Shown in pieces: positions 34,840 to 61,637 of a DNA stretch of 64,000 bases. Source of the DNA: Escherichia coli (GTDB taxonomy: Bacteria; Pseudomonadota; Gammaproteobacteria; Enterobacterales; Enterobacteriaceae); the NCBI RefSeq assembly GCF_003334815.1, contig NZ_QOWO01000003.1. One strand, written 5' to 3'. The notes beneath the pieces were generated by a model that saw only the letters and a program-made list of their open reading frames with translations, was not told the origin of the DNA and made no database searches. A program made the translations under genes and the position numbers. Position 1 is the first letter of the stretch; the number at the start of each line of letters is the position of its first letter.

Positions 34840-34989
34840 TCTTTCATCGGATTCTGAAAACGGGTGGCAATGGCTGCCCGTTTTTATTTTCTCCGCACAT
34901 TGTGTGAGCTTTTGCGATATTCTGAAAAAATGAGAATTCAGGCATAACGTCTTTCTCAGATCATAAAAAACATCGCAAACAGGGAACGC

Positions 34990-59026: not shown

Positions 59027-59302
59027 TTAGAAAAATGCCAGCCAGAACAGCATGGCGTAGAGAGCAAAAAGGGCGGTATAAATAATTCCGACAAATGCCA
59101 GATTGATATTTGCCCGCTGAATAACTCGCCTCGTGATGAGCGTCAAAATAAGGCTGGCAATGGCGCAGAAAAACCAGCTGGGATAATAAGCGCCGATCAC
59201 CGGGATTGCCGGAGATAATGAGCATCCCGAAACCATGAAGACGGGAATTATCCAGGCTGTTTTTTTGAGTTGCATCGCCATGCGAGAGAGAACTGTTGGC
59301 AT
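59027..59302 (-). CDS. ytcA: Small lipoprotein YtcA (91 aa), first gene of the ytcA-mdtNOP operon
   Basis: MPTVLSRMAMQLKKTAWIIPVFMVSGCSLSP (lipobox) followed by two hydrophobic helices. Confidence 0.8.
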   Translation of the reverse strand: MPTVLSRMAMQLKKTAWIIPVFMVSGCSLSPAIPVIGAYYPSWFFCAIASLILTLITRRVIQRANINLAFVGIIYTALFALYAMLFWLAFF

Positions 59303-59510
59303 ATTAAATACATCCTGTCTGCTGCGAACAATATCTGTAGTGAATATCAATATCCATTGAAGGCGTCAGTATGGCTATTTTCTTGATGAATAAAAATAGC
59401 TTTATTCAGCCACCGCATTCATAACTTATATATTTTATTTATTAATTGGCTGTATATATTTTTAAAATAAATACTTTTGGGGGCTTCAGCGCCCACAAAA
59501 GCGAGTGACA

Positions 59511-61408
59511 TTAATTTGGGGTTACGATATTCACCCACAAATCGAAATTATCCAGACAGGCGATAATTTCTTCCAGTTTCGCGCCATTGCCAATAATTTT
59601 GGCTTTCTTCGCTTTTACCAGATCCGCCATTTTGGCTTGTCCGGTCAGCACGGCGTGCAGATCTTCACGGCTGATGTAGAAAGAGGCGTCGGCTTGCGGT
59701 TGCAGCGTTTTCCGGTAGTTAAGCACGCTATCGTTCAGCGTCAGGTTGAGGTTATCGCCGTTGCTCATATTGAAGTTCAGGCTGATATTTTTACCCGCAG
59801 CTTTCGCGCTATCGAGGCGAACGGCCATAAAGTCGAACAGCATTTCGACCGACATCCCGCGAATGGTGTCCGGGGAACCGGTGGTGCCGTGGCTGAACTT
59901 ATGCACCCCTTCGCGCAGCTCTTTCGCGCCGGTCAGGTAGAAACCGCGCCATGTGGCGGACTCGGCCTGATAGCCCAGCTGTTCAAAGTTATTCGCTTGC
60001 AGATTCTTCGCGACCTGGTCACCCGGGTTGGCGGCAATCACCTGTTTCAGCAGTTCTGCCGACCAGCGGTAATCACCTTGCTTGTTCGCTTCTTGCGCCA
60101 GGTTGATGACACGGGCAGAACCGCCCAGCGCCTGCACGTAACGTTTACCCATCTCCACCTGACCATACGGATGCAGGTTAGCCGGGTTACCGTCGTAATA
60201 GCCAAGATAGAAGTTATACACCGCGCGGGCGTTGTGGCTGACAGAACCGTAATAGCCGCGGCTGGCCCAGTTATTGGCAAGTGCAGGCGGCAGCTTAATC
60301 ATGTCGCCGATTTCATTCATGGTGTAGCCCTGGTTCGCCAGGTGTGCGGCATAAACAGCACTTCCGCGTCGTTACCCCACATATCCAGCGTTTCGTTCAG
60401 ATACTCGGTCCACTTGCTGGTGTCGCGGGTTTTCGCGCCGCGCAGAGTGTAGAAGTTGTGCAGGGTATGCGTGGCGTTCTCGGCGGTACACAGGGCTTTC
60501 AGGGCCGGAATATAGAAGTGCATTTCGGCTGGCGCTTCGCTACCTGGGGTCATCAGGAAGTCAAACTCCAGGCCGTCGATAATCATCTTCTCGCCAGTTC
60601 TGACGATAGTTTTCGTCGGTGCAATAATGCTCGGGTCGCCCGTTGCCAGCGTCACGCCAAGGCCATTACCCACATTGCCTTGCGCGTTGTGCGGCAGTAA
60701 CAGACCGTAAGAGTAGAGCGCACGGCGGCTCATGATGTTACCCGCCAGCACGTTTTCGCTGATGGCTTCGTCCATAAAGCCTGCAGGGGCAATCACCTGA
60801 ACTTTGCCGGATTTAACATCGGCTTCAGAGATAATGCCTTTCACGCCACCATAGTGGTCGGTGTGGCTGTGAGTGTAGATAACGGCAACAATCGGTTTTT
60901 GCGGACGATGCTGGAAGTAAAGGTCAAGTGCGGCTTTTGCGGCAGGCGGCGTCACCAGCGGGTCGATAACAATAATGCCTTTCTCGCCCTCAACGAACGT
61001 AATGTTAGAGATATCCTGGCCGCGCACCTGATACATTTTATCGGTGACTTTGAACAGGCCAGAAATACCGTTGATTTGCGACTGACGCCACAGGCTGGGG
61101 TTTACGGTTTCCGGCGCTGCGGCATTAATATCAAATTTGTAATCGTCCGCGCGGTAGTAAACTTTACCGTTCGCATCACGCAGAATACCTTCATCCAGCA
61201 GCGGGGCGATAAATCCACGCTGGGCATCGTCAAAATCCTGACGATCGCTAAACGGTAATGATTTGGCGTAATTCTGATTAACCTGTTGGGTATATTGAGT
61301 GGCGGCTTTCGCTTCCTCTTTCGCGTTAGCGGTATTTACCATCATGCCGCTGGCGGCAGTTAACGCAATAACAATCCTGCTCAAACGGAATAACCGAGAG
61401 TTATTCAT
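59511..61408 (-). pseudogene. yjcS: Alkyl/aryl-sulfatase gene yjcS split into two frames (N-terminal MBL-fold fragment and C-terminal fragment)
   Basis: Track ORF 60317..61420 (MBL-fold; [11 protein letters not shown]) ends ...[16 protein letters not shown] 59511..60320 ([17 protein letters not shown]...) starts in a different frame whose upstream codons read ...HLANQGYT. Frame break near 60337..60346. Confidence 0.6.
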
Positions 61409-61637
61409 ATAAATCTCCATTTATCATTTATGTCGTAAATATGTAATCCATGCAAAATACGTCATTTAAAGCTGGCGTTATCATAATTGGGAAATTGCGA
61501 CTTTAATAAGTGGAAGTGTGAGCGGAACGCGCCATTTTATTAGGCATTTGTGCTGAAGAGGGAAAATTACAGTAAAACTATCATTGCAGAAAATAATATG
61601 AGTCGTTTTATGTGTTTATTATATATATTGTACCTGT

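Follow-up and report, generated by a model that had tools for sequence, protein, structure and literature searches.

The yjcS gene in the Escherichia coli DNA analysed here (a stretch of 64,000 nucleotides, referred to below as the window) is interrupted by an 88-bp deletion between two short direct repeats. We hold with high confidence that this is a real, derived loss-of-function allele and that the direct-repeat deletion behind it occurred independently on two haplotypes or more. Reading of the minus strand between positions 59300 and 61700, together with the open reading frames (ORFs) listed for the window, showed yjcS to be present as two ORFs in different frames:

60317..61408, minus strand: N-terminal yjcS fragment, 363 codons followed by a TGA stop
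59511..60320, minus strand: C-terminal yjcS fragment, 269 codons, beginning MNEIGDM at native Met393

The N-terminal ORF was listed as 60317..61420, and its real start (MNNSRLF) lies at 61408. On the minus strand it ends with CTG TTT ATG CCG CAC ACC TGG CGA ACC AGG GCT ACA CCA TGA, and this stop (TGA, 60317-60319) and the start codon of the C-terminal ORF (ATG, 60318-60320) overlap as ATGA. When read with a shift of one base, the same end runs on into the C-terminal ORF. An earlier note, made from the sequence alone, had reported a frame break inside yjcS, and both ORFs and the shifted reading through them confirmed it on the minus strand. The order of genes in the window, alsK-yjcS-ytcA-mdtNOP, gives yjcS the same neighbours as in K-12; in the annotation of K-12 MG1655, yjcS codes for alkyl sulfatase YjcS, has a length of 661 aa and lies between alsK and ytcA-mdtNOP. 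The length of about 661 aa that the note had given for the intact K-12 protein was therefore correct. The note had also taken the two halves for parts of one MBL-fold alkylsulfatase, a view borne out by the presence of the Lactamase_B domain in the N-terminal ORF and of the PF14863 and PF14864 domains in the C-terminal ORF.

A base-by-base comparison of the window with K-12 MG1655 showed the gene to be identical except for one clean gap. Its length is exactly 88 bp; the note had expected roughly 88 bp to be missing on the basis of that protein length. When positions 59400-61600 were used as a megablast query, the locus was found in 5,360 of the 5,426 complete E. coli genomes. K-12 and many other genomes matched the query with 100% identity in two pieces, which together spanned 2,289 bases as compared with the 2,201 bases of the query. 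The earlier note had proposed looking for short direct repeats around the missing segment, and these were present: in intact yjcS, an 8-bp direct repeat, CACCTGGC, lies at both ends of the segment lost, and the window has kept one copy. The positions are as follows:

4257-4264 and 4345-4352 of the K-12 locus (L001), starting at nt 1065 and 1153 of the coding sequence (CDS): the two CACCTGGC copies of the intact gene, with a start-to-start spacing of 88
60337..60344, minus strand: deletion junction with the sole retained CACCTGGC copy, located by alignment to K-12

The 88 bp lost equal the 88-bp spacing of the repeats, and the flanks are those of the reference up to the repeat, with no filler or foreign DNA. 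The segment lost corresponds to nt 1073-1160 of the CDS, with a boundary that is ambiguous by 8 nt. The CACCTGGC repeat is also found in a second intact allele (L010). For searches of the SRA, a k-mer of the deletion carriers is GCCGCACACCTGGCGAACCAGGG.

Three features together are the signature of slipped mispairing: a perfect repeat at both ends, one surviving copy and a lost segment as long as the repeats are apart. Slippage between the CACCTGGC repeats is very likely to have been the route of the deletion: the 88 bp would have been lost by slipped mispairing of the nascent strand between the two copies during replication. A perfect 7-bp inverted repeat is nested between these copies, with GGTCTGG at positions 4266-4272 of L001 and CCAGACC at 4335-4341; its arms are set 1 nt inside the left CACCTGGC and 3 nt inside the right one. 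Pairing of GGTCTGG with CCAGACC could bring the two direct repeats together and so aid slippage, although, judging from the geometry of the repeats, a contribution of such a hairpin to the deletion is only possible. Exact direct repeats of at least 8 bp lying 12-200 bp apart were surveyed in 71 kb of K-12, and a nested perfect 7-bp inverted repeat was found in two of the 415 pairs, a statistic computed after the fact. Within yjcS it was found in one of ten pairs, namely the one deleted. Folding of a 111-nt segment as single-stranded DNA, relative to shuffled sequences, gave z values of -1.72 and -0.47 for the two strands, neither of them significant; the 7-bp stem was present only in the centroid structures and absent from the minimum-energy folds. 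Deletions between direct repeats by slipped mispairing have reportedly been described at the deletion hotspots of lacI. The yjcS deletion resembles those in having a short repeat at its ends, of which one copy is kept, in its length being equal to the repeat spacing, in an adjoining palindrome and in its recurrence. It differs from them in coming from natural isolates and metagenomes, and not from a mutation-spectrum experiment.

The search for the junction in public data was performed with a 46-nt probe, neither half of which could seed a 28-mer word. This 46-mer had no match among the complete E. coli genomes (5,426). A sensitive-mode search placed the two halves of the junction at a distance of 88 bp in 5,326 of them; the break is a defined lesion and not a chance pattern, the intact gene being the usual state and the deletion the derived one. 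The frame break is thus not conserved among orthologues in complete genomes, and the same counts led to rejection of the idea that a split gene, or a programmed frameshift, is the normal state. The homologues in the PDB (4nur, 2cfu and 2yhe) also align without a break through the deleted region. A 23-nt core of the junction gave no hits in JGI metagenome contigs, and a literature search for the deletion allele or for yjcS pseudogenes in E. coli returned nothing relevant. The exact 363-aa product (P0001) is deposited as CAM9134690.1, and the 269-aa fragment (P0016) as CAM9134704.1. At least 12 contigs, from separate runs and gut metagenomes, code for the truncated product; sources of carriers are the MEGAHIT metagenome assemblies ERZ19667149 and ERZ919266 (human gut metagenome, PRJEB21528) and the Logan assemblies of ERR9716427, SRR29091898 and ERR14335422. 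All the carrier contigs share the 363/269-aa overlap and have intact genes on either side of it.

The deletion was found on two different alleles. In the window and in the loci L005, L006, L008 and L009 it lies on a K-12-like allele; the 46-mer of these four loci is identical to that of the window, from which they differ by 0-2 SNPs over the stretch shared (up to 7.7 kb), and they stem from separate ENA and Logan samples and different assemblers. In L007 (SRR29091898; the contig is present in three samples) the deletion lies on an allele resembling that of strain L73. The L007 locus aligns to the window without gaps, that is, it has the same deletion. It differs from the window by 21 SNPs, 20 of which form a cluster (positions 59439 to 60674) that extends to either side of the junction. 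The L007-type allele matches intact yjcS of complete genomes at 100% identity and, over 9.1 kb, three SNPs and the 88-bp loss, at the same repeats, are all that distinguish L007 from the intact strain L73. Each of the deletion-bearing alleles has intact, near-identical relatives. The SNPs nearest the repeat that separate the two deletion haplotypes are located 15 nt upstream and 79 nt downstream of it, distances that make a transfer of the deletion alone by homologous recombination implausible. The same 88-bp deletion has probably arisen at least twice, a count that rests on one divergent haplotype, L007, and the CACCTGGC repeat pair would act as a minor deletion hotspot. The K-12-like carriers have private SNPs at 59495 (the window and L008), 61949 (L005 and L009) and 61668 (L006); these sub-haplotypes would fit a single older origin of the deletion as well as its further recurrence.

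A single origin, followed by spread of the deletion between backgrounds by recombination and with no hotspot involved, is improbable. It would agree with the closeness of four of the five loci examined to the window, as expected from common descent of that group, as well as with the frequent recombination of E. coli and with the SNP cluster of L007, which resembles a recombined segment. However, this cluster flanks the junction, so that both crossovers would have had to fall within those 15 and 79 nt. Further, the haplotype of L007 is that of a common intact allele, and a new deletion on that allele is the simplest account. The reading preferred here is therefore that of recurrent deletion at the CACCTGGC repeats.

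Apart from the 88-bp deletion, the differences between the window and K-12 across all 64 kb amount to 11 SNPs and a 1-bp change in a run of A residues. Differences so few indicate that the window comes from a strain of phylogroup A very closely related to K-12. The SNP at position 59495 (G to T on the minus strand) lies in the terminator of yjcS:

59473..59502, minus strand: yjcS terminator hairpin, from RNA folding

This SNP opens one G-C pair of the terminator stem, and folding gave -16.0 kcal/mol for the window as compared with -23.2 kcal/mol for K-12. It is common to the window and L008 and absent from the deletion carriers L005 and L006; it is therefore probably later than the deletion. 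The run of A residues lies at about position 34931, in the yjcE-ghxP intergenic region, and contains six A in the window and seven in K-12 (GAAAAAATGAG); it is the only other indel in the 64 kb. The gltP-yjcO intergenic region contains a 113-bp tandem repeat (positions 50845-51332; 4.3 copies, 96% matches) rich in REP-like palindromes, which is also present in K-12. Some close genomes, such as NCTC9100, span 226 bases fewer here once the 88-bp deletion is allowed for, a difference equal to two 113-bp repeat units; these match spans suggest a copy-number polymorphism of the 113-bp repeat.

Since 88 is not a multiple of three, the deletion shifts the frame after Trp357, and a stop follows six codons later. 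The N-terminal fragment consists of native residues 1-357 and a frameshifted tail, RTRATP. Pfam analysis of intact YjcS assigned Lactamase_B to residues 130-355, Alkyl_sulf_dimr (PF14863) to residues 392-530 and Alkyl_sulf_C (PF14864, SCP2-like) to residues 539-660. The N-terminal fragment keeps the signal peptide, the whole of Lactamase_B, the HSHTDH motif at 180-185 (HxHxDH) and the last His at 355. The C-terminal fragment contains complete dimerisation and SCP2-like domains, without a signal peptide. The 35 native residues 358-392, located between the metallo-beta-lactamase and dimerisation domains, are lost. No single polypeptide in the window joins the catalytic, dimerisation and SCP2-like domains.

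K-12 YjcS (b4083; PDB 4PDX) is a type III MBL-fold alkylsulfatase related to Pseudomonas SdsA1 (2CFU), SdsAP (4NUR) and Pisa1 (2YHE). The 4PDX entry is YjcS itself, in a construct that begins at Lys30, and the K-12 protein is identical to it over residues 30-661. This start at Lys30 fits a predicted signal peptide that would be cleaved after TANA29 and a periplasmic location of YjcS. A passage of PMC6107682, citing Liang et al. 2014, states that intact YjcS acts on SDS. The window locus is like that of K-12 in its location, its neighbours, its domain content and its DNA, which is 100% identical outside the deletion; it differs in lacking the 88 bp, with the consequent loss of residues 358-392 and the frameshift. 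The product of the window allele would be an exported MBL domain without the dimerisation and substrate-recruiting domains. If the C-terminal piece were made by reinitiation at the overlapping ATG, it would lack a signal peptide and stay in the cytoplasm. Judged by its sequence, the window copy of yjcS is a pseudogene, and the truncated enzyme is most likely inactive.

It is very unlikely that the two ORFs represent a functional two-part sulfatase, with domains made separately by means of ATGA coupling that then reassemble. The break does fall at a domain boundary, leaving Lactamase_B whole in one ORF and both PF14863 and PF14864 whole in the other, the ATGA stop/start overlap has an AGGG 7 nt upstream that could permit some reinitiation, and the allele persists in several samples. 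However, such an enzyme would have to work without the 35 residues lost, and the signal peptide is present on the N-terminal piece only. The fragments would therefore end up in different compartments, the N-terminal one being exported and the C-terminal one not, which makes a working reassembly unlikely. In addition, the split state is absent from all the complete genomes, its origin is a random repeat-mediated deletion and not a conserved architecture, and yjcS is affected by many other lesions that are plainly inactivating (nonsense mutations, a +1 frameshift and IS insertions). Loss of function thus remains the preferred reading of the allele.

Other natural lesions of yjcS were found using the C-terminal ORF as a probe. 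A Q389 amber mutation (CAG to TAG, CDS nt 1165) was present in L011, L014 and L019, the neighbouring genes being clean. It sits in a Dcm site, where it converts CCAGG to CTAGG, the classic signature of 5-methylcytosine deamination. A W357 opal mutation (TGG to TGA, nt 1071) was present in L018, inside the left direct repeat and also with clean neighbours; TGA at Trp357 was found on two protein backgrounds, in 29 and 13 contigs. Dcm deamination was considered as the origin of both nonsense alleles and rejected: Q389 fits, but W357 does not, since the change from TGG to TGA alters the outer G of CCTGG. In L020, a C is inserted (+1) at CDS nt 1072, directly after the left direct repeat, and the neighbouring genes are again clean. 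These knock-outs all lie within 100 nt of the deletion, and such crowding of lesions around nt 1065-1165 is probably an ascertainment effect of the probe. These natural knock-outs affect the same gene as the 88-bp deletion and have the same likely outcome, although they arose by other mutational mechanisms. Among the lesions described here, the 88-bp deletion is the only one shown on two clearly distinct DNA haplotypes. Insertions of IS1 in yjcS or in its 3′ flank were observed in several unrelated complete genomes, and an insertion of ISVsa5 (IS4-like) in yjcS or its 3′ flank was observed in the E. coli W derivatives LY180 and KO11FL, in SL112 and in the K-12-derived ET12567. It seems that yjcS is lost often.

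Some of the splits detected were discarded. Those of L015-L017 (assemblies GCA_020556595.1, GCA_053109915.1 and Logan SRR515926) are due to single-base homopolymer indels that also split alsK, mdtN and mdtO, and look like consensus errors, while that of L012 corresponds to a scaffold gap (NNNN). It is hardly credible that the 88-bp deletion is itself an assembly or sequencing artefact and the true yjcS intact: the junction is absent from complete RefSeq E. coli genomes and spurious breaks of yjcS do occur, as in L012 and in L015-L017, where homopolymer indels affect many genes, but independent projects and assemblers (ENA MEGAHIT k119/k127, Logan ERR and SRR) yielded at least 12 contigs with the same junction, ruling out an assembly error, the genes next to it are intact in the carriers, an 8-bp repeat is far below the k-mer size of the assemblers, and an 88-bp lesion is unlike a homopolymer slip. 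The earlier note had offered a pseudogene, a strain variant or an assembly error as alternatives; the first two stand together, the allele being a rare natural strain variant and a pseudogene, and the third fails because the junction is found in independent assemblies. Recurrence of the deletion, on two distinct haplotypes, had not been anticipated in the note.

A broader reading, which we consider doubtful, is that the CACCTGGC repeats, each with a Dcm site, and the palindrome nested between them constitute a structure-promoted hotspot, and that yjcS is repeatedly, and possibly selectively, inactivated in commensal E. coli. If this were true, 88-bp deletions, the Dcm-type CAG-to-TAG amber mutation, the opal mutation, the +1 frameshift and the IS1 and ISVsa5 insertions would all converge on loss of the alkylsulfatase.

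The deletion described here is a new allele generated by a well-known mechanism; it implies no new biology, and its relevance is mostly one of bookkeeping. The yjcS gene of this strain should be annotated as a pseudogene and not as two ‘metallo-beta-lactamase superfamily’ proteins of the deposited record (CAM9134690.1 and CAM9134704.1), and the 88-bp junction could be used as a lineage marker. No YjcS alkylsulfatase activity is expected in the strain, and the recurrence of the deletion on two haplotypes provides a small natural case of repeat-mediated, possibly palindrome-assisted, deletion.
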